A model generated the notes under the pieces. That model was not told the DNA's origin and searched no databases. It saw only the letters and a list, made by a program, of their open reading frames with translations. A stretch of 64,000 nt of DNA from Escherichia coli (GTDB taxonomy: Bacteria > Pseudomonadota > Gammaproteobacteria > Enterobacterales > Enterobacteriaceae): the NCBI RefSeq assembly GCF_030013205.1, contig NZ_CP122648.1; one strand, written 5' to 3'. This document shows, piece after piece, positions 39,523 through 60,210 of this stretch. Within the stretch, counting starts at the first letter, position 1, and each line of letters opens with the position of its first letter. The position numbers were made by a program, and so were the translations under genes.

Positions 39523-40515
39523 CTAATCGATGGACAGTTTATGGACACTTTCAGCCAGCGGATTAAAGTTGATCGCGTCCTGTAAGAAGTCCGGCGAAAA
39601 ATGAGCGTACGTCATTGTTTGCTGAATCGTTGCGTGCCCCAGGATTCGTTGCAACGTAACAATATTTCCGCCATTCATCATAAAGTGTGTGGCAAATGTA
39701 TGACGCATGACATGCGTAGCCTGCCCCTTCGGCAAATCCGGTTTCACCTCCTGAAGAATCTCCCGGAACTTCAGATAATCAACCTGATACAATAACCCCG
39801 TTCGACGGGTTTTAATCAGAGGCACGACCGAATCCGCCACAGGAACCGAACGGGATTTTCCGTTTTTGGTGTTAAAGAACGTCACCCGGTTGCCAACGAT
39901 ATGCTCTCCACGTAGTTCCGATGCTTCACTCCATCGGGCACCAGTAGAAAGACACAGAATGGCAACACGACGCGCATCACCCTCCAGTCGCTCAAGAAGC
40001 CGTTCAATCTCATCATCAGAAAGAAAGGCCATCTCTGTGTTCTGAACTTTCAGTTTTCGTATACCGCGTACAGGGTTCGCGTTGTGAAAGACCTCAGCTT
40101 CAATCAGCACCGTGAACATGGTAGACAGTACGCATAAGTCACGATTAATACTGGACGGCATTAATCCGGCCTGTAATTTCTCTGACCGATATTCAAGCAT
40201 AAATTTTCGCGTCATCTGACTGGCGCGAGGATCTCCCATTTCACGAACAACCTTCCCTAGCCTAACCCTGTAGCTATCCCCGTAAGCCTGATTACGCCCA
40301 TCAAGCATCCACCACGCATCAAGCAGCTCTGATAATCGCCGCTGATCAGCTGGCTTAGCCTGCCATGGCTTGTCATGAAAGTTCTGTAACACATACTTCT
40401 CAAACTCCTGAGCCTTTGATTTCAGGGCAAAGATTTTTCGAATCCGCTTTCCTTCCGCCCCCTGCGGTCTGACATCGACCTGATAACGTCCGTCTTTGAG
40501 TTGCTTAATCGACAT
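39523..40515 (-). CDS. int: Phage integrase (tyrosine recombinase, P2 Int-like)
   Basis: N-terminus MSIKQLKDGRYQVDVRPQG resembles P2 Int; C-terminal catalytic region with HxxR...Y; adjacent to attL. Confidence 0.88.
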   Translation of the reverse strand: MSIKQLKDGRYQVDVRPQGAEGKRIRKIFALKSKAQEFEKYVLQNFHDKPWQAKPADQRRLSELLDAWWMLDGRNQAYGDSYRVRLGKVVREMGDPRASQMTRKFMLEYRSEKLQAGLMPSSINRDLCVLSTMFTVLIEAEVFHNANPVRGIRKLKVQNTEMAFLSDDEIERLLERLEGDARRVAILCLSTGARWSEASELRGEHIVGNRVTFFNTKNGKSRSVPVADSVVPLIKTRRTGLLYQVDYLKFREILQEVKPDLPKGQATHVMRHTFATHFMMNGGNIVTLQRILGHATIQQTMTYAHFSPDFLQDAINFNPLAESVHKLSID

Positions 40516-40584
40516 GATTAGCCCCTCCAACGGATAAATTAACTAAACACTCCTTGCGATATGTAATTCGCTCAATGTGTAGAG

Positions 40585-40926
40585 TCAGCCAACATTGCGG
40601 CCTGATCGGGGTGATTTTTGGGTAATACCGATTGAAACCTGATCGCCCTCCGACTGAATAGATCCATCAAGAGAGAGAGCCGGAGCAATCTGCCCGGCGA
40701 CAGGTAGCGTCTTATCTTTTATTAGCCACAGCATGTATTTTTCAAAGCGATCGACTTGCAGAACCGCCTCAACGATTTTTGCTCTAGCGTTCTTTTGCCC
40801 CGATTCGTAATTCCTTATGGTTGCCAAAGACAACCCAGTAATATCCGCAAACTGCTTTTGTGTTAACCCTTCCGCCTTACGTATCTGACGTAACTTTTTT
40901 GCATAGTCTATTGACAAGATAACCAT
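40585..40926 (-). CDS. Prophage repressor (P2 C-like, HTH)
   Basis: HTH LTQKQFADITGLSLATIRNYESG and C-terminal GQIAPAL motif resembling P2 C; start uncertain (ORF extends to 40980). Confidence 0.75.
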   Translation of the reverse strand: MVILSIDYAKKLRQIRKAEGLTQKQFADITGLSLATIRNYESGQKNARAKIVEAVLQVDRFEKYMLWLIKDKTLPVAGQIAPALSLDGSIQSEGDQVSIGITQKSPRSGRNVG

Positions 40927-40971
40927 TTGAGTATTAACCTCTCGCACAAAGATAACCGTTTGATTATCTTT

Positions 40972-40989
40972 ACAAACCAAAACAAACCA
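40972..40989. promoter_or_regulatory. Candidate operator: two 8-bp direct repeats ACAAACCA spaced 10 bp centre to centre
   Basis: Lies between the divergent repressor and early operon; P2 C binds direct repeats. Confidence 0.35.
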
Positions 40990-41030
40990 TCACAAGGCGC
41001 GACAAGCGCACCAACGCAAGAGGATAACAA

Positions 41031-41552
41031 ATGCGGGACTTCATTGCCGATAAAGAGTTATCTGACCACCAACCACTTCAGGAAAGTGACGCACTCAGCG
41101 GATCCATTGATGCCGCCAACGACGACGAACACGAAGAAAACAAGAAAAAGCGTTCCTACAAAAAAGGAGCGACTTTACGGCTGGATGGTCCGATCGCCGG
41201 GCTTTGCTCTCTGGAAAAAGGCGCGGCATATATTGGGCTAACAAAATCTGCACTGCGCGTAGCCATTCATCGCGGTCAAATGCCGGGACACAAGACGCGC
41301 ACAAACCCGGAAGATGAAAACTCAGACGGAGTATGGTGGTTTAACGCCAAAGAGTGGGACGCACTGGCTGACGAGCTACCGGAACTTGAGCCACCAGAAT
41401 GGCACAACTGGAAAAGTTACTGGACGTATGACCGCCAGAAAAGAAAGTTCTTTCCAGCTAATAAAGAAGACTGCCAGACCATTAACGGTAAGCGAGTTTA
41501 TACAGGCAGAAGCTCAAAACTGAACCAACTCAGAAACAACAGAGGCAACTAA
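41031..41552 (+). CDS. Early protein with excisionase/AlpA-like HTH (possible Cox analogue), 173 aa
   Basis: First gene of the rightward early operon with a good RBS; segment YIGLTKSALRVAIHRGQMPG resembles Xis/AlpA HTH. Confidence 0.5.
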   Translation: MRDFIADKELSDHQPLQESDALSGSIDAANDDEHEENKKKRSYKKGATLRLDGPIAGLCSLEKGAAYIGLTKSALRVAIHRGQMPGHKTRTNPEDENSDGVWWFNAKEWDALADELPELEPPEWHNWKSYWTYDRQKRKFFPANKEDCQTINGKRVYTGRSSKLNQLRNNRGN

Positions 41553-41556
41553 TCGT

Positions 41557-41979
41557 ATGAAAACAAACACGTCAGATTTCACAATAACTATTTCAAAAAA
41601 TGACCAAGCATTAATTGATAACCTGAAATACCTTGCGGAAAAACATAATAACGGACGAATTGCAATTAATTTACGACACATCACAGGAGTAACAATTGTA
41701 ACCAGTTACTGGCATCTATATCTAATCGCTAAATCAGTACTGGAAAACAAAGATTCTGTTGTCAATGGAAGAGATGTAGATACTCTTCCTGCACAAATCA
41801 AACCGATAGCCTATCAATTGCGTAATCGTTTTAAAAATGAAGGTGGGATTATATTTGACTTTCCCGCAGCTGTAGCCGTGAGCTTCTCTCGGGAGGATAT
41901 ACTTCACTCATTTCGTTTTGCTCTATCAGGTGACGAGACATTATGGCAGCTAGAAGATGCCGGGAGCAGCCCGGCATAA
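41557..41979 (+). CDS. Hypothetical protein, 140 aa, AT-rich cargo
   Basis: ORF starts 5 bp after the preceding gene; markedly AT-rich; no recognisable domain. Confidence 0.5.
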   Translation: MKTNTSDFTITISKNDQALIDNLKYLAEKHNNGRIAINLRHITGVTIVTSYWHLYLIAKSVLENKDSVVNGRDVDTLPAQIKPIAYQLRNRFKNEGGIIFDFPAAVAVSFSREDILHSFRFALSGDETLWQLEDAGSSPA

Positions 41980-41985
41980 ATCAAA

Positions 41986-42177
41986 TTAAAAATCAACCAG
42001 TTGTGTGACAGGTGGGTATTTACGCTGAATTTTGTCAGTTACTAACGCCAGTAATATATGAATCTCTGCGTTTAATGCGTCTTTATCACCCGTCGTTTTT
42101 ACCCTAGGAGGGTTAATGTTATCCAGAGCAGCACTAAGGTCACTCAACAAATTAACAACTTTTTTATCTTCTGACAT
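41986..42177 (-). CDS. Hypothetical small protein, 63 aa, convergent to the 140-aa ORF
   Basis: AT-rich ORF on the opposite strand inside the early region. Confidence 0.35.
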   Translation of the reverse strand: MSEDKKVVNLLSDLSAALDNINPPRVKTTGDKDALNAEIHILLALVTDKIQRKYPPVTQLVDF

Positions 42178-42312
42178 GAAAACCTCTAAACAATTTAATT
42201 AAACATAAGCCAGGACCTGAACCGGCCAGTCCAAGTCCTAGACACACAAAAAATACCACAAATCAATACAAGGTGACACGAGTACACCTTACCGAAGGTA
42301 CAGAGTTTTAAT

Positions 42313-42663
42313 ATGAAACTACAGCGCAATTCTTCACAGCCGCGCTTCCGCAACGGTGCGGAACGCCACGCTAACCGTTTCGCTACCAGTGCATCACGTA
42401 GCAACTCTCGCTACAGCCTGAGCGAAACACACGCAACGCCGGATGGCTACCCAGTAAAACAAATCGGCGAGCATACCTGGCTGATTGAGAAAGCTGGAAT
42501 TGTGGTCCACAAATGCCCACGCAATCCGTTTACCGGAAACCGCATTTTTGCATTGAGCTGCGGCGACAATCAGTTCGGGCAGGATTTCACATTATACGAA
42601 GCACTTCGCACGGTTGATCGTCTGCTTCGCGGGCAAAGTTTTATTAAACAGGCTGATTTATAA
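42313..42663 (+). CDS. Hypothetical phage early protein, 116 aa
   Basis: ORF in the early operon; start uncertain. Confidence 0.4.
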   Translation: MKLQRNSSQPRFRNGAERHANRFATSASRSNSRYSLSETHATPDGYPVKQIGEHTWLIEKAGIVVHKCPRNPFTGNRIFALSCGDNQFGQDFTLYEALRTVDRLLRGQSFIKQADL

Positions 42664-42673
42664 CAGGTGCGTT

Positions 42674-42961
42674 ATGACCAAAGAGCATGCACAAGGTGTA
42701 TTTATCCGTTTTATTGATTTTCGCGGTGAAATGTTATTACGCGCATCCGCTATTGATGGAGTGGCTCCAGCGGGTAAAAACGGAGCCAACGAAGCCACTT
42801 ACGTTTATCTGAACAGCACGCGACTGCTTGTGGAACTTCCGTACCAGACCGTACGAGAAATCATTAGTGAAGCTGAAAAGGCACGCCAGGCTAATGGCGA
42901 TAAACCCTATATCGAAATTATTTGTATGGATTCAGAAACTGAAATTCAGAAAGCAGATTAA
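42674..42961 (+). CDS. Hypothetical phage early protein, ~95 aa
   Basis: Start taken at MTKEHAQG; tight spacing with neighbours. Confidence 0.45.
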   Translation: MTKEHAQGVFIRFIDFRGEMLLRASAIDGVAPAGKNGANEATYVYLNSTRLLVELPYQTVREIISEAEKARQANGDKPYIEIICMDSETEIQKAD

Positions 42962-42972
42962 AGGGCGTTGCG

Positions 42973-43215
42973 ATGGGCAAAGAATATAAAACTCTCATTA
43001 ACAAAGCACTTGAGCGTTTTTATTTTCGCTTAAGTGCATCAGGCGCTCATGCTGAACGTGCAGCCCGTGACTCATTGACCAGGGCAATCCGGAGTCTGTA
43101 TGACGTGGCTTTTTACGCTGATGATCTGGATGCACTTAACGAACTTTCCGAGCTGATCTGTGCCGCAGAATGCGGGGAACATATTGAACCGTATAAGCTG
43201 GGGAATATCGCATGA
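42973..43215 (+). CDS. Hypothetical phage early protein, 80 aa
   Basis: ORF ending in an ATGA overlap with the following small ORF. Confidence 0.45.
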   Translation: MGKEYKTLINKALERFYFRLSASGAHAERAARDSLTRAIRSLYDVAFYADDLDALNELSELICAAECGEHIEPYKLGNIA

Positions 43216-44606: not shown

Positions 44607-44810
44607 ATGAACAAAAAGACCTGGTTTCGCGCATACATGTGGGCGCTGGTATGCGTCCTCGTTTCTCTCATTCTGTATGCAGGACTCCTCCCCCGAATGA
44701 TTTCATCAGACAGCTCCTTCCTGGTATTGCTGGGCATTTTCATTGCCATGCTGTACCCGGCAGGCGTTGTTCGCCTTTTCAGTAAGTACATCAAGGAAAT
44801 CAAACAATGA
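44607..44810 (+). CDS. Small two-helix membrane protein, 67 aa (possible NfeD-like partner)
   Basis: Two hydrophobic helices; stop overlaps the start of the SPFH gene (ATGA). Confidence 0.5.
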   Translation: MNKKTWFRAYMWALVCVLVSLILYAGLLPRMISSDSSFLVLLGIFIAMLYPAGVVRLFSKYIKEIKQ

Positions 44811-45637
44811 AGAAATTCAAACTCTTTCAGATTATCCCTCTTTTTGCCGCCATCCTGCTGGTTGGTTGCGATCGTGTTGAGCCAGGTAATGTGGGCATCA
44901 AAGTCAACAAACTGGGCGACGACAAAGGCGTCGGTGAAGTGGTTGGTGTTGGCCGCTACTGGACTGGCTGGAATACCGAGGTTTACATCTTCCCGACCTT
45001 CAAACAAATGAAGACCTACGATGAGCCGTTCAGCTTCCAGATGAGTGACGGCACAACCATCGGCTATCACATCGGTGTGGCCTACAAGGTTGATCCATCC
45101 AAAGTTACTACAGTGTTTCAGACCTACCGCAAAGGCGTGGATGACATTACCGACACTGACCTGCGCCAGAAGATCGCCGATGCACTCAACCGACTGGCCA
45201 GCAAAATGACCACCGACAAATTTATCGACGGCGGGAAATCTGAACTACTGGATGCAGCTCTTAAAGACATTCAGGAGGAAATGACACCCATCGGTATTCA
45301 GGTAATGAGCCTCTCATATGTGGGTAAGCCGGAGTACCCGTCAACCGTTATCGACAGCATTAATGCCAAAGTCACGGCAAACCAGAAAACCCTGCAACGC
45401 GAACAGGAAGTCAAGCAACGTGAAGCAGAAGCCAACATGTTGCGCGCAGAAGCTGCCGGACAGGCTGATGCCATTCGCACAAAAGCCCAGGCTGAAGCCG
45501 ACGCCATTCGTTTACGCGGTGAAGCTCTGCGCCAGAATCCCGGCGTTATGGAGCTGGAAGCAATCAACAAATGGAACGGCACGCTGCCGCAATACATGAC
45601 CAGCAATACCGCTGTTCCGTTTGTTCCGGTGAAGTAA
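44807..45637 (+). CDS. SPFH/band-7 (stomatin/prohibitin-like) lipoprotein, 276 aa
   Basis: Lipobox LLVGC; SPFH-like core followed by an Ala/Glu-rich coiled coil (REAEANMLRAEAAGQADAIRTKAQAEADAIRLRGEA). Confidence 0.65.
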   Translation: MKKFKLFQIIPLFAAILLVGCDRVEPGNVGIKVNKLGDDKGVGEVVGVGRYWTGWNTEVYIFPTFKQMKTYDEPFSFQMSDGTTIGYHIGVAYKVDPSKVTTVFQTYRKGVDDITDTDLRQKIADALNRLASKMTTDKFIDGGKSELLDAALKDIQEEMTPIGIQVMSLSYVGKPEYPSTVIDSINAKVTANQKTLQREQEVKQREAEANMLRAEAAGQADAIRTKAQAEADAIRLRGEALRQNPGVMELEAINKWNGTLPQYMTSNTAVPFVPVK

Positions 45638-46679: not shown

Positions 46680-46967
46680 ATGACAGCAGAGTACATCAGG
46701 GACTGGCAACAACCGCGCCACGCAGTGGGGCGTGAAGGAACGGGGATCCCTGCTCCTGAAGCGGTGGAAGGTGTCGCAACGTCACAGGCCGACATTATCG
46801 ACCGTTTTAATGCGCTGGAAACCCGCCATCAGCAGGACAGCCAGAAAATCACTTTACTGACCACAGAGCTGACAGCACTGAAGGAAAAACTGCGCACGCA
46901 GGACGGCGATCCGCAGAACCGGTTCACCGCAACGGGCGCAGCCTCCGATCAACTGGCTGACTTCTGA
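46680..46967 (+). CDS. Hypothetical phage protein, 95 aa
   Basis: Tightly packed ORF. Confidence 0.45.
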   Translation: MTAEYIRDWQQPRHAVGREGTGIPAPEAVEGVATSQADIIDRFNALETRHQQDSQKITLLTTELTALKEKLRTQDGDPQNRFTATGAASDQLADF

Positions 46968-46990
46968 TAAGACAAAGGAGCAAATTTTTT

Positions 46991-47254
46991 ATGAATCTGG
47001 TGATGTCAGATATTACCCGCAACAAGCTGGGTTGCTATATGGCGCAGCAGGCGTCGCTTAACAACATCCCGGTATCTGCACTGGTATCGCGATTTACCGT
47101 GGAACCCTCGGTGTCCGCCATTGCTGCCGCACTGCATGTGCACGGTGTGCAACGCGTGGAAATAATCGAACCCACACAGAATATGGCCATCAGCGACATA
47201 CAGGCGGCGCGCTGTGAGTCATTCACCATCAGCGAAGGTGGACGCAATGAGTAA
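46991..47254 (+). CDS. Short ORF (87 aa) overlapping the gpI start; possibly a 3' remnant of baseplate gene J
   Basis: 8-bp overlap with gpI as expected for a J/I junction; far shorter than P2 J (~300 aa). Confidence 0.35.
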   Translation: MNLVMSDITRNKLGCYMAQQASLNNIPVSALVSRFTVEPSVSAIAAALHVHGVQRVEIIEPTQNMAISDIQAARCESFTISEGGRNE

Positions 47255-47774
47255 TTCGCTGTTACCACCATCAGCCAGCAATTTCATGCGTTGTGCCGAA
47301 GCCGTCGGGACACGCATTACAGACATTCCGGTAGACCTCAACACGCTGTGGTCGCCGGATACCTGCCCGGTGCATCTGCTGCCTTATCTCGCCTGGGCAT
47401 TTTCCGTTGACCGCTGGGATCGCAACTGGCCGGAAGAGACAAAGCGACAGGTGATTCGTGATGCATGGCTGATACACCGACACAAGGGAACCATCAGCGC
47501 ACTGCGCCGGGCCATTGAGCCGCTGGGATATCTCATTCGTGTGTCTGAGTGGTGGGAGTTCGACGGCGAACCCGGAACATTCAAGGTTGATGTTGGCACG
47601 CTGGACAGTGGTGTGACCGAGGAAATGTATCTGGAAATGGAACGGCTGATTGCCGATGCCAAACCCGCAAGTCGCCACCTTATCGGCCTGAACATTATCC
47701 AGGACATTCCTGGCTATCTGTATACAGGCGGTGTGGTCTGTGATGGTGATGTTATTACTGTTTATCCCGGATAA
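47247..47774 (+). CDS. Baseplate/tail protein I (P2 gpI family), 175 aa
   Basis: MSNSLLPP...LWSPDTCPVHLLPYLAWAFSVDRWD...ERLIADAKPASRHLIGLNI matches recalled P2 gpI. Confidence 0.85.
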   Translation: MSNSLLPPSASNFMRCAEAVGTRITDIPVDLNTLWSPDTCPVHLLPYLAWAFSVDRWDRNWPEETKRQVIRDAWLIHRHKGTISALRRAIEPLGYLIRVSEWWEFDGEPGTFKVDVGTLDSGVTEEMYLEMERLIADAKPASRHLIGLNIIQDIPGYLYTGGVVCDGDVITVYPG

Positions 47775-50442: not shown

Positions 50443-51059
50443 TGGCATTCAGAATGAGTGAACAATCACGTACTGTAAAAATTTATAACCTGCTGGCCGG
50501 AACTAATGAGTTTATTGGTGAAGGTGACGCATATATTCCACCTCATACAGGGCTGCCAGCCAATTCTACAGATATCGCCCCACCGGAAATTCCTGCTGGC
50601 TTTGTGGCAGTTTTTAACAGTGAAAATGAATCGTGGAATATTGTTGAAGACCATCGTGGTAAAACGGTCTATGACGTGGCATCGGGGGACGCGTTGTTTA
50701 TTTCTGAACCCGGACCGCTACCAGAGAATGTCACCTGGTTGTCGCCAGCAGGGGAGTATCAGAAGTGGGACGGCGTATCCTGGGTGAAGGATGAGGAAGC
50801 AGAAAAACTGTTTCGGATACGGGAAGCGGAAGAGAAAAAGGCAAGGTTGATCCAGGAAGCAACAGATAACATCGCAATTCTGCAGGATGCAGTTAATCTT
50901 GAAATAGCAACAAACGAGGAAAATTCACAACTGGATTCCTGGAGAAAATACAGAGTATTAGTGAGTAGAATTGACACCAGTACAGCTCCGGATATCGTAT
51001 GGCCAGAGCTGATGAATCAGGGTTATGTGCGGGAGGACGAGCAGATAACTTCAGACTGA
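50442..51059 (+). CDS. Tail fiber assembly chaperone (P2 gpG/Tfa-like), 205 aa
   Basis: TAATG-coupled to the fiber gene; Tfa-like sequence. Confidence 0.8.
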
Positions 51060-51586
51060 AATTTAGTGATGAATGTTGAATCATCTGGAATATCATGCAA
51101 TACCAATGCATGAGCACCTATTGTGACATTGTTTCCTATACGCACTTTGCCACCAAGAATGGTGGCATTACAACCAATGGTCACATTATGTCCTATAACA
51201 ATATCCATATCATTAAAATCACCACGCAGCCCAATAGTTACCCCTGGTTTTATTGAACAATTTTCACCGATTGTTACTTTGTGACCGATAACAACACTGT
51301 TGAGATAAGAAATATCAAAGCCTTTCCCTATATTTACAGTTAAAGGGACTGTTACATTATATTTATCAAGAATGAAACGTTCTATTTTCCCCGCAATCTT
51401 CCGACAGCATCCGCCTTTATCAAAAAGGTATTTGGCTATGCGCCACCAAAATAAATAACGAACTCTTCTATGTTTTATTGCGCGAACAATTGCCTTTCGC
51501 CAGGAGAAAGGACGCTCGCTACCGATTACTTCATAGTGAATACAATCTTTAAGTTCATTAATATTCATATCTCTATTATTCAGCAT
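51023..51586 (-). CDS. Hexapeptide-repeat O-acetyltransferase (WcaB/CysE-like), 187 aa
   Basis: Left-handed beta-helix repeats ([45 protein letters not shown]); AT-rich; 37-bp convergent overlap with the fiber assembly gene. Confidence 0.75.
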
Positions 51587-58785: not shown

Positions 58786-59469
58786 ATGTCAGAGGACCAT
58801 GTTATGAATATGCAAATTTTTATTGGACCAACAGCCACAGTTGCCGCGGTCTGCCTTGCTGCATATTTTGCTTTACGAAATGAGCGTAAAAAGAAAGCGC
58901 TTGAGATTAGAACAACTCAACTAGATCGAATATCTGAGCTAGTAAGCAGAGCATCTACCAATTTGATGCAATATACAGGTACTCTTGCCTCTATACTGGA
59001 AGCGCACACCAAAGAAAATTATCTACCAGACCACAAATTTAACATTAATGAAATTAGCAAATGGAAAAATGATCTCGATAAGAGAGAAGATTGGGCTATT
59101 GATATACAGCAACTAAGAACATGCCAGCACAACCTGGAGTTTCATCGTGAAAAAGAATGGGCTGAATGGGAAAAAATAATTCCACCATTACTTGATAAAA
59201 TTAACCAATTTTTTCTCATATCCAAGCCGGGGCAACCTGTTACGCTTATAAATGGTCAAAATAAAACAGTCGATGAACTGATTGCTTTCTCAATATACTT
59301 ACAACAACAAACAGAAGAAATTAAAGCGGTACGTAAGCTGCTACTTTCTCAAATGAGAGAAGAATTCATCGAGTTAACTAGCTTTGAACCTGTCACAATA
59401 TTTAGCTTATTAAAATCAATAAAGAAAAGTGTCCTGCAATTTTTCTGTATCAGTGCTCTTAAAAATTGA
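58786..59469 (+). CDS. Membrane-anchored hypothetical protein, 227 aa, AT-rich cargo between D and ogr
   Basis: N-terminal TM helix (IFIGPTATVAAVCLAAYFAL) then ~190-aa charged helical domain; low GC; followed by a hairpin terminator at ~59483-59512. Confidence 0.6.
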   Translation: MSEDHVMNMQIFIGPTATVAAVCLAAYFALRNERKKKALEIRTTQLDRISELVSRASTNLMQYTGTLASILEAHTKENYLPDHKFNINEISKWKNDLDKREDWAIDIQQLRTCQHNLEFHREKEWAEWEKIIPPLLDKINQFFLISKPGQPVTLINGQNKTVDELIAFSIYLQQQTEEIKAVRKLLLSQMREEFIELTSFEPVTIFSLLKSIKKSVLQFFCISALKN

Positions 59470-59939: not shown

Positions 59940-60152
59940 ATGGTCGGAGGGAATACCCGAAGGCCGGATGTGGAAAGGCCCCGGAAAACATTTTTGTTTA
60001 ACCGAGGCCCTGACCATACAACCTTCGCAAGTCGTAGGTTAGCGCCTCTCCAACAAAGGAGCAAGCGCTATGTCGCAAAAATCGCTTATGGCCATCACGT
60101 TCTGCGTGACGGTAATCCTCATCATCTGGATGCTGCACGGTTCGCTGTGTGA
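59940..60152 (+). CDS. Mok-like reading frame overlapping the hok-like toxin gene
   Basis: 70-codon ORF in another frame, starting upstream of and ending within the toxin ORF, as in hok/mok loci. Confidence 0.4.
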   Translation: MVGGNTRRPDVERPRKTFLFNRGPDHTTFASRRLAPLQQRSKRYVAKIAYGHHVLRDGNPHHLDAARFAV

Positions 60153-60210
60153 AATACGGATGAGCTTCTGGGGAGCGGAGTTTGCGGCGTTCTTACAGTG
60201 TAAGCAGTAA
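60070..60210 (+). CDS. Hok/Gef-family type I toxin, 46 aa (MSQKSLMAITFCVTVILIIWMLHGSLCEIRMSFWGAEFAAFLQCKQ)
   Basis: N-terminal TM helix then SLCEIR and AAF motifs characteristic of Hok-family toxins; RBS AAGGAG 8 nt upstream; below the ORF-track length cutoff. Confidence 0.75.
   Translation: MSQKSLMAITFCVTVILIIWMLHGSLCEIRMSFWGAEFAAFLQCKQ

Follow-up and report, generated by a model that had tools for sequence, protein, structure and literature searches.

A convergent gene pair occupies a variable slot behind cox

In a 64-kb stretch of the Escherichia coli chromosome (contig NZ_CP122648.1; hereafter the window), which carries a P88-like prophage (Xuanwuvirus, Peduoviridae) integrated between dmsA and serS, two small genes face each other directly behind cox, the first gene of the prophage early operon. 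The larger one encodes a protein of 140 amino acids (aa) on the forward strand, the smaller one a protein of 63 aa on the reverse strand, which also carries the integrase gene int and the C-type repressor gene. We refer to these open reading frames (ORFs) as ORF140 and ORF63. Their stop codons are separated by 6 bases, and both lie exactly where an earlier reading made from the bare letters (the sequence-only reading) had placed them (Table 1). Our analysis indicates that the two very probably form a genuine accessory module of two genes that is mobile and belongs to a family not characterised before. This family is confined to P2-like E. coli and Salmonella prophages, where it inhabits a variable slot behind cox.

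The module is the coding part of a 743-bp island. In blastn comparisons with the related loci L003, L004 and L005 (compared loci carry L numbers throughout), homology stops at position 41552 and restarts at 42296-42306. The left junction is the final base of the cox stop codon, identically so in E. coli ETEC1749, and the right junction, 42296, lies 17 nucleotides (nt) 5′ of the ATG of a DUF4761 gene, at its ribosome-binding site. In phage P88 the slot is empty, with cox and the DUF4761 gene ~30 bp apart. E. coli ETEC1749 shares the integrase and has related C and cox genes, but its slot holds a gene for a 68-aa protein with two transmembrane (TM) segments. This 68-aa gene also fills the slot in RIVM_C037884, where the immunity region is a different one; under their locus numbers, L004 and L005 are the slots with a 68-aa gene.

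The island was found whole and in single copy in 269 of 5426 complete E. coli genomes (~5%), at 95-100% identity. Carriers include the uropathogen reference strains UTI89, NU14, EC958 and JJ1886 as well as two plasmid records; strain ETEC4079 is 100% identical to the window over the region examined. Phage records with the island are vB_EcoM-569R5, vB_EcoM-705R2 and an ST131 'Entero_P88' phage. Two further complete E. coli genomes gave only a partial match, one of them being the 59-bp remnant of L019 (E. coli PRO_A-1504-6M-A_ESBL, 1983-2560). This locus represents a natural clean deletion of the equivalent of 41550-42236, which lengthens Cox by 12 aa and keeps the predicted ORF63 promoter, now aimed directly into cox.

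The base composition of the island is deviant, with a GC content of 0.386 (0.382 for the span of the two ORFs) compared to 0.505 for the window and 0.49-0.51 for the flanking phage DNA. Only 1.3% of all 743-bp segments of the 64-kb sequence are this low. GC content at third codon positions (GC3) is 0.30 for ORF140 and 0.31 for ORF63 versus 0.51 for cox and the DUF4761 gene, and the Salmonella versions of the island likewise reach only 0.41-0.43 between flanks of 0.46-0.51. The sequence-only reading had described an AT-rich island unlike the surrounding DNA; this is correct mainly for the immediate flanks and does not extend to some nearby early genes, which are moderately AT-rich as well (GC3 0.35-0.45). 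Its proposal that the pair is cargo is backed by presence/absence polymorphism with sharp junctions between collinear phages and by the foreign composition of an island whose two genes always come together. A promoter or terminator of its own, as is looked for in cargo ('moron') genes, was predicted for ORF63 only, as an extended -10 site and a leader hairpin, and none was found for ORF140.

The two genes have been conserved as a unit

Eight sequenced pairs from four divergent clades (the window and Salmonella) were available, together with L033 from IMG/VR. In every pair a forward gene of 131-149 aa converges with a reverse gene of 60-63 aa, and the stop codons either overlap by 4 nt or lie 4-6 nt apart. 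In the contigs retrieved for the homologues, this layout was seen in each early region of a P2-like prophage in which an unfused ORF140-type protein is encoded by the forward gene next to the reverse gene. Between clades, ORF140 homologues share 21-35% identity and ORF63 orthologues, which are always convergent with an ORF140-type gene, 35-44%. The pairwise identities of the large and the small protein are correlated (r = 0.975). The ratio of non-synonymous to synonymous substitution rates (dN/dS) is 0.1-0.35 overall for both genes, 0.18-0.26 for the large gene in the relatives (0.18-0.22 within the best-sampled clade) and 0.11-0.34 for the small one. Judged by these substitution patterns, both ORF140 and ORF63 are real genes under purifying selection. 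The concern raised with the sequence-only reading, that the 63-aa ORF might lack conservation, is thereby removed, and the convergent pair is kept as a unit across all four clades.

The family is narrow. An exhaustive phmmer search of 1.84 billion representatives returned two distant ORF140 homologues, and a profile search added a dozen further clusters, all of them from E. coli or Salmonella enterica. When 5.8 billion proteins were searched by a word index, only proteins of E. coli and Salmonella prophages were retrieved, 50,697 phage records screened by tblastn yielded no more than three near-identical phages, and a peptide-pattern scan of 100,044 species genomes gave no match. ORF140 homologues are thus found only in E. 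coli and Salmonella P2-like prophages.

Within these prophages the ORF140-type domain also occurs in other settings. It is present as a tandem paralogue without a small partner of its own (L014, L017), and it is fused either to a C-terminal domain in common with L007_259 (fusion L009_225), in which case the convergent partner has 103 aa, or to another C-terminal domain in common with L010_166 and L014_260 (fusion L015_234), with a partner of 168 aa. Each type of reverse gene was seen with only one forward domain, namely the 62-aa gene with the ORF140-type domain, the 103-aa gene with domain C and the 168-aa gene with domain B, a pairing that rests on about a dozen loci. In no case did the small gene occur in the absence of an ORF140-type gene, and the forward domains do occur without reverse partners. 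Such an asymmetry would be the pattern expected of a dependent partner, i.e., an inhibitor or modulator, even though linkage alone could explain much of it.

Neither protein matches a recognised family

Searches of Pfam, PHROGs, NCBIfam and PADLOC gave no match for ORF140 or ORF63, in line with the absence of a recognised domain in the sequence-only reading, and members of the two families gave scattered single hits only. PADLOC-DB 2.0 contained no defence family for either protein at E ≤ 1, profile searches against the PDB sequences gave no match for either, and a DNA-binding domain was not detectable in either of them. A match of ORF140 to DUF1408/PHROG 5450 (16 bits, residues 67-101) was seen in only one of 12 family members and was taken as noise. 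In profile-profile comparisons by hhalign, ORF140 was set against 186 CII, Tum and P2 B (orf78 being outside this comparison) and ORF63 against Fil and Dhr, and all probabilities were ≤0.6%. ORF140 does not therefore turn out to be a standard P2 early gene as represented by CII, Tum or P2 B, which had been considered as an outcome that would overturn the sequence-only reading. In the literature, the RefSeq protein accessions of the pair are mentioned in no paper.

ORF140 is predicted to be an alpha/beta protein. Its AlphaFold2 (AF2) model reached a predicted local distance difference test (pLDDT) score of 61 and showed no fold match in a fold library. The invariant polar residues of the family (D16, T49, Y51 and R120) do not suggest a catalytic site, and we tentatively read ORF140 as a binding module. 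Conserved in the small-protein family are M-[NS]-[ED]-D-x-K at the N terminus, the residue pair A-L within helix 1 and K-Y-P after helix 2. ORF63 is predicted to be a two-helix protein, with helices at residues 3-20 and 32-53 in a model in which ORF140 and ORF63 were fused by a linker.

The two genes are predicted to be transcribed towards each other

The ORF upstream of ORF140 belongs to the Cox family (Pfam PF10743 Phage_Cox, E = 6e-7; PHROG 23196, E = 3.5e-114) and is named 'Cox family DNA-binding protein' in RefSeq, so that the pair does lie directly after the first early gene, as had been described. The top sigma-70 match on the forward strand of the region (TTGACA-18-TAACCT, 40911-40940, with the -10 at 40935-40940) is a candidate for the early promoter Pe and is located as in P2-type phages. 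A strict scan revealed no forward-strand promoter and no forward-strand terminator in the island. Because of this and of the 4-nt gap to cox, ORF140 is probably carried on the Pe transcript as part of the early lytic operon. In order to reach the DUF4761 gene and the early genes beyond it (DUF4754 and others), this transcript must cross ORF63 in antisense.

In Salmonella relatives, small ORFs for hydrophobic peptides, not promoters, take up the space 5′ of the large gene. Uncalled ORFs of this kind, ~37 aa in length (MYDLKNL...IKFI...), lie immediately 5′ of ORF140-type genes at ~4880-4995 in L007, ~3870-3990 in L013, ~3410-3530 in L014 and ~3870-3990 in L015. In L008 a 58-aa membrane ORF directly follows cox, and the alternative slot cargo of E. 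coli, the 68-aa two-TM protein, is likewise a membrane protein.

ORF63 is preceded by a 135-nt non-coding stretch with a predicted promoter and a stem-loop. Salmonella relatives show two more leader types, whose sequences have no relation to one another or to the leader of the window. In all three types, the best site is an extended -10 (TGnTATnTT) 65-72 nt 5′ of the ATG which is followed by a hairpin, and in the two unrelated Salmonella types the hairpin takes an equal relative position. Folding of the window stem-loop as RNA yielded -21.5 kcal/mol (z = -1.5). The idea that this hairpin is solely a plain terminator was rejected, as it lies between the predicted promoter and the Shine-Dalgarno sequence of ORF63 and no space is left for a promoter 3′ of it. 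The leader hairpins of the relatives contain only 1-2 compensatory pairs, too few to claim a selected RNA structure, and Rfam gave no family match for window positions 40500-43000 or for the intergenic leaders of five relatives. One of the two Salmonella leader types is ~90% conserved in front of three unrelated reverse genes (62, 103 and 168 aa). Overall, these predicted features lend reasonable support to the view that ORF63 is transcribed leftward on the int/C strand as a unit of its own.

A GC-rich hairpin within the last codons of ORF140 could mark where the ORF63 mRNA ends; this hairpin was not called by the terminator scan and is absent from the junctions of the relatives. No reverse-strand terminator was found by the scan between ORF63 and C, so that the two transcripts must overlap.

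Salmonella P2-like prophages carry an intergenic element of ~160 nt, whose core of ~130 nt is ~90% identical between loci. It precedes three unrelated reverse-strand genes (62, 103 and 168 aa) and folds into three hairpins, a strong one of which is followed by a U-tract; it has no Rfam match. The element has the appearance of a common promoter/leader unit that serves cargo on the reverse strand.

Table 1 Features of the island and its surroundings. Positions refer to the window except where a locus is named; strand + is the strand of cox.
Feature	Position	Strand	Remarks
int	39523-40530	-	Left end of the prophage
C-type helix-turn-helix repressor gene	40585-40980	-	Mechanical ORF; RefSeq annotates 342 nt (40585-40926)
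cox	41031-41552	+	173 aa; first early-operon gene, left flank of the island
Variable island	41553-42295		743 bp; ORF140, ORF63 and ORF63 leader/promoter region
ORF140	41557-41979	+	140 aa; ATG start, begins 4 nt past the cox stop codon
GC hairpin	41960-41976		GCCGGG-AGCAG-CCCGGC; convergent junction, within the last ORF140 codons; read from the sequence
ORF63	41986-42177	-	63 aa; ATG start, int/C strand
ORF63 Shine-Dalgarno sequence	42187-42183	-	AGAGG, 5-nt spacer
Leader stem-loop	42210-42241	-	14 pairs, in the predicted ORF63 5′ leader, then CUUAUGUUUAAUU; from a scan for terminator-like structures
Rightmost 59 bp of the island	42237-42295		Kept in L019 and fused there to cox
Predicted ORF63 promoter	42250-42279	-	-35 GTGTCA (42279-42274), extended -10 TGgTATTTT (42258-42250), predicted start ~42243
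DUF4761 gene	42313-42663	+	Next conserved early gene, right flank of the island; Pfam PF15958, E = 8e-71
~160-nt element, Salmonella	L007 5603-5765 and 6805-6970; L009 5938-6101; L010 4636-4797; L014 6069-6228; L015 5238-5398		Intergenic, before reverse-strand genes

ORF63 tolerates transposon insertions in a lysogen

Published transposon-directed insertion-site sequencing (TraDIS) data for the island carrier EC958 cover ORF63, whereas ORF140, cox and C were unannotated in the 2013 EC958 draft. The dataset lists EC958_1050 at 1107210-1107383 on the plus strand, which is the strand of the integrase gene EC958_1051 there, with dmsA as EC958_1052 (PMC3789825, Table S1). Each coding sequence that we compared (dmsA, int and the DUF4761 gene) is listed in this table 18 nt short of the gene. 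With the shortening allowed for, EC958_1050 corresponds to ORF63 by coordinate geometry, on which the assignment rests, i.e., by a length of 192 nt and distances of 138 nt to the DUF4761 gene and 1471 nt to int, matching the complete EC958 genome exactly.

EC958_1050 received 19 insertion sites with 247 reads, resulting in an insertion index of 0.110 and a classification as non-essential (is.essential = N; PMC3789825, Table S1). In a later re-analysis it scored +4.34 in EC958 and +5.01 in NCTC13441, where essential genes have negative values (PMC11481867, Table S2). As a caveat on this kind of essentiality test, some established antitoxins, yeeU among them, were also scored non-essential in the EC958 dataset (PMC3789825). 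ORF63 can accordingly be inactivated in a lysogen that retains ORF140. This dispensability argues against a classical addiction module and fits a scenario in which ORF140 is silent or harmless in the lysogen.

The same study names EC958_1039, a hypothetical protein of 281 aa, among 24 strain-specific essential genes (PMC3789825, Table S3). Its locus number falls between those of serS (EC958_1005) and dmsA (EC958_1052), which is the span of this prophage; the corresponding region is deleted in the prophage of the window.

A tentative model of an early effector and its partner

From the anatomy of the island, we infer opposite regulatory states for the two genes. We tentatively propose, at a probability of roughly 0.3, that ORF140 is an early-lytic effector and ORF63 its cognate small partner, made from the lysogenic strand, with reciprocal expression brought about by colliding transcription units. 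Production of ORF140 would be limited to times of Pe activity following infection or induction. The lysogen would produce ORF63 from its own extended -10 promoter with the hairpin leader, and head-on transcription from Pe would silence it in lytic growth. More speculatively, ORF140 might act on the host or on competitors, as do fil and dhr of phage 186 from the same slot, and ORF63 might buffer or counteract the ORF140 that leaks out in the lysogen. The logic would approach that of a toxin and its antidote split across the lysis-lysogeny switch, neither protein being a member of a toxin-antitoxin (TA) family. That lysogens can do without ORF63 would be expected if ORF140 is silent there.

Several observations weigh against this proposal. 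Weaker promoter-like sites on the forward strand lie inside ORF140 and cox, and expression of ORF140 in lysogens is therefore possible. The ORF63 promoter is a match to the consensus only, with a position weight matrix score of 9.5 at a chance rate of ~0.45 sites per kb and strand. Co-divergence of the two proteins is to be expected for any two neighbours in one mosaic block. Neither protein comes with a biochemical or homology indication of any activity. When the linker fusion of ORF140 and ORF63 was modelled by AF2 with paired alignments, it reached a pLDDT of 53 and a predicted template modelling score (pTM) of 0.40, compared to a pLDDT of 61 for ORF140 alone, so that confidence was not gained and an interaction is not supported. 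Finally, an ORF140-type domain in L015 that is 88% identical to the partnered one of L013 has no small gene; the partner is thus not obligatory.

The last two points equally speak for the alternative that two independent cargo genes are paired through linkage in one recombination block only, an explanation that we rate as no less likely than the proposal above. ORF63 would then be a conversion or defence gene expressed in the lysogen from its own promoter, and ORF140 an unrelated accessory early gene. Opposite orientation and probably separate promoters agree with this, as does the conserved leader in front of three unrelated Salmonella reverse genes (62, 103 and 168 aa), which suggests a generic expression site for reverse cargo. 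However, independence does not readily account for each type of reverse gene being tied to one forward domain, nor for a 4-nt overlap of stop codons and a pairing that has outlasted divergence to 21-35% and 35-44% identity in four clades.

The proposal of an effector and its partner can be extended, with considerably more reserve, to a whole class of cassettes in the region behind cox of P2-like phages. In such 'split-switch' cassettes, forward effectors of the early operon with shuffled domains, in which the ORF140-type domain stands by itself or is joined to further C-terminal domains (at least two kinds), would be combined with cognate convergent reverse genes. The reverse genes of 62, 103 or 168 aa would be expressed from a common leader of promoter and hairpin on the lysogenic strand, the prophage would carry an antidote or immunity protein in lysogeny, and the effector would be released only upon lytic commitment. 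We consider it rather unlikely that the class as such is real.

It is also improbable, in our view, that the pair is a two-component exclusion or anti-phage defence system whose proteins are both expressed in the prophage state and block superinfecting phages. The slot is variable and belongs to a phage family known for defence cargo, of whose defence systems 8% in P2-like phages lie between the integrase and primase genes (2026 preprint, 10.64898/2026.02.27.708500). The DNA is AT-rich, both proteins are small and of no recognised function, and the island persists in 269 genomes, the degraded prophage of the window included. In contrast, PADLOC gives no match, the restriction to E. coli and Salmonella is narrow unlike that of most defence systems, and a convincing promoter is missing for ORF140, which stands 4 nt behind cox within the repressed early operon. 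Positive evidence for the exclusion or TA function suggested by the sequence-only reading was not obtained.

Comparably low odds apply to a role as modulator of the lysis-lysogeny switch. The leftward ORF63 transcript would be antisense to ORF140 and cox, possibly running into C-int, and would damp early transcription by interference, similar to 186 pE or lambda pRE, with ORF63 or ORF140 acting as small regulators. The missing reverse-strand terminator between ORF63 and C would permit this, interference between convergent promoters is the logic of the 186 switch (pR versus pL and pE; 186 annotation), and the position behind cox is that of 186 cII. However, P88 lacks the pair, as does ETEC1749 with the same type of C and cox, so the switch works without it. 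In addition, the proteins have no detectable DNA-binding domain, the hhalign probability against 186 CII is below 1%, and an operator-like sequence common to ORF63 and the C-cox switch region was not found: the latter and the sequence upstream of ORF63 have no k-mer of ≥8 bases in common.

A classical type II TA addiction module, in which ORF140 would be the toxin and ORF63 a labile antitoxin that survival continuously depends on, would suit two small neighbours on a mobile element of which the larger has no recognised function and the smaller is helical, but it is already largely refuted and very improbable, because the genes are convergent and not co-transcribed, in the relatives as well, Pfam, NCBIfam and PADLOC give no TA family match, ORF140 by its place in the early lytic operon should be silent in a lysogen, ORF140-type domains exist partnerless, and ORF63 with its 19 insertion sites in EC958 is non-essential in two ST131 TraDIS libraries, the yeeU caveat applying.

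Comparison with known phage modules

The closest positional counterparts of the pair are fil and dhr of phage 186 and orf78 of P2, genes of Peduoviridae phages that lie in the same slot, where they directly follow the Cox/Apl gene of the early lytic operon. All are small and dispensable, and host-directed activities are given for fil and dhr (186/P2 annotation): in 186, apl is followed by cII, fil, a cell-division inhibitor, and dhr, an inhibitor of host replication. The likeness is one of position, whereas similarity to the pair in sequence or profile was not seen for Fil, Dhr, CII, Tum or P2 B in the comparisons made, orf78 being outside them. The slot genes of 186 and P2 also differ in being forward-strand genes throughout, with no convergent partner for any of them.

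Like the island, the lysogenic-conversion genes old, tin and Z/fun of P2 are variable cargo of atypical composition, and old and tin have their own promoters on the int/C strand, as ORF63 appears to have. The described hotspots of P2/P4 are the gpA-portal gap, sites within the tail genes and the gap between tail genes and CI, and the slot behind cox is not among them. From the defence cargo of P2/P4, the pair is set apart by the lack of PADLOC homology and by ORF140, the half of it that lies within the lytic operon.

Type II TA systems likewise comprise two small linked genes on a mobile element, of which the smaller could neutralise the larger. The pair deviates from them by its convergent arrangement, the lack of a family match and of a DNA-binding antitoxin domain, and a putative antitoxin that is dispensable in lysogens.

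With respect to layout, the immI region of P22 provides a parallel. There, ant lies with the convergent sar RNA, and the lytic/antirepressor transcript faces a nearby downstream convergent promoter. Both in immI and at the face-to-face promoters of 186 (pR versus pL), transcripts overlap and one can suppress the other, which is like the predicted layout of the pair. Different from sar, the convergent transcript of the pair encodes a conserved 63-aa protein and is not antisense RNA alone.

Further features of the prophage

The prophage in the window is defective, with replication, head and lysis genes and part of the baseplate genes deleted (RefSeq annotation of the identical ETEC4079 region); intact phages with the same island exist. 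Within 46680-47774, a 5′ fragment of a replication gene (46680-46763) abuts a GPO scaffold fragment (46758-46967), followed by a major capsid fragment (46991-47113) and tail protein I (47247-47774). The early region includes a gene for an SPFH-domain lipoprotein of 276 aa (44807-45637, plus strand), which P88 has too.

A serine acetyltransferase gene (51023-51568, minus strand) directly follows the tail-fibre assembly gene in a low-GC patch of ~0.37 and is probably cargo at a tail-fibre (Z/fun-type) hotspot. The patch in which the GC content of the window reaches its minimum (0.357) holds a hypothetical gene of 221 aa (58804-59469, plus strand), flanked by a truncated gpD/VgrG-like gene and by ogr. 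A toxin gene of the Hok/Gef family is annotated between ogr and serS, where the prophage ends on the right (60070-60210, plus strand).

Implications

Neither of the two proteins has a recognisable relative beyond the P2-like prophages of E. coli and Salmonella, and the island marks a small variable slot behind cox that lies outside the described P2 hotspots (old/tin, Z/fun and the tail-CI gap). If the split-switch class were true, it would represent a polymorphic effector/immunity arrangement built into the switch between lysis and lysogeny. Should the two genes be independent, ORF63 would qualify as a lysogenic-conversion candidate in the ST131 and ST95 lineages. If, on the other hand, ORF140 and ORF63 are a cognate pair, each expressed on its own side of the switch, they would illustrate a way for temperate phages to keep a host-directed early function safe in lysogeny.

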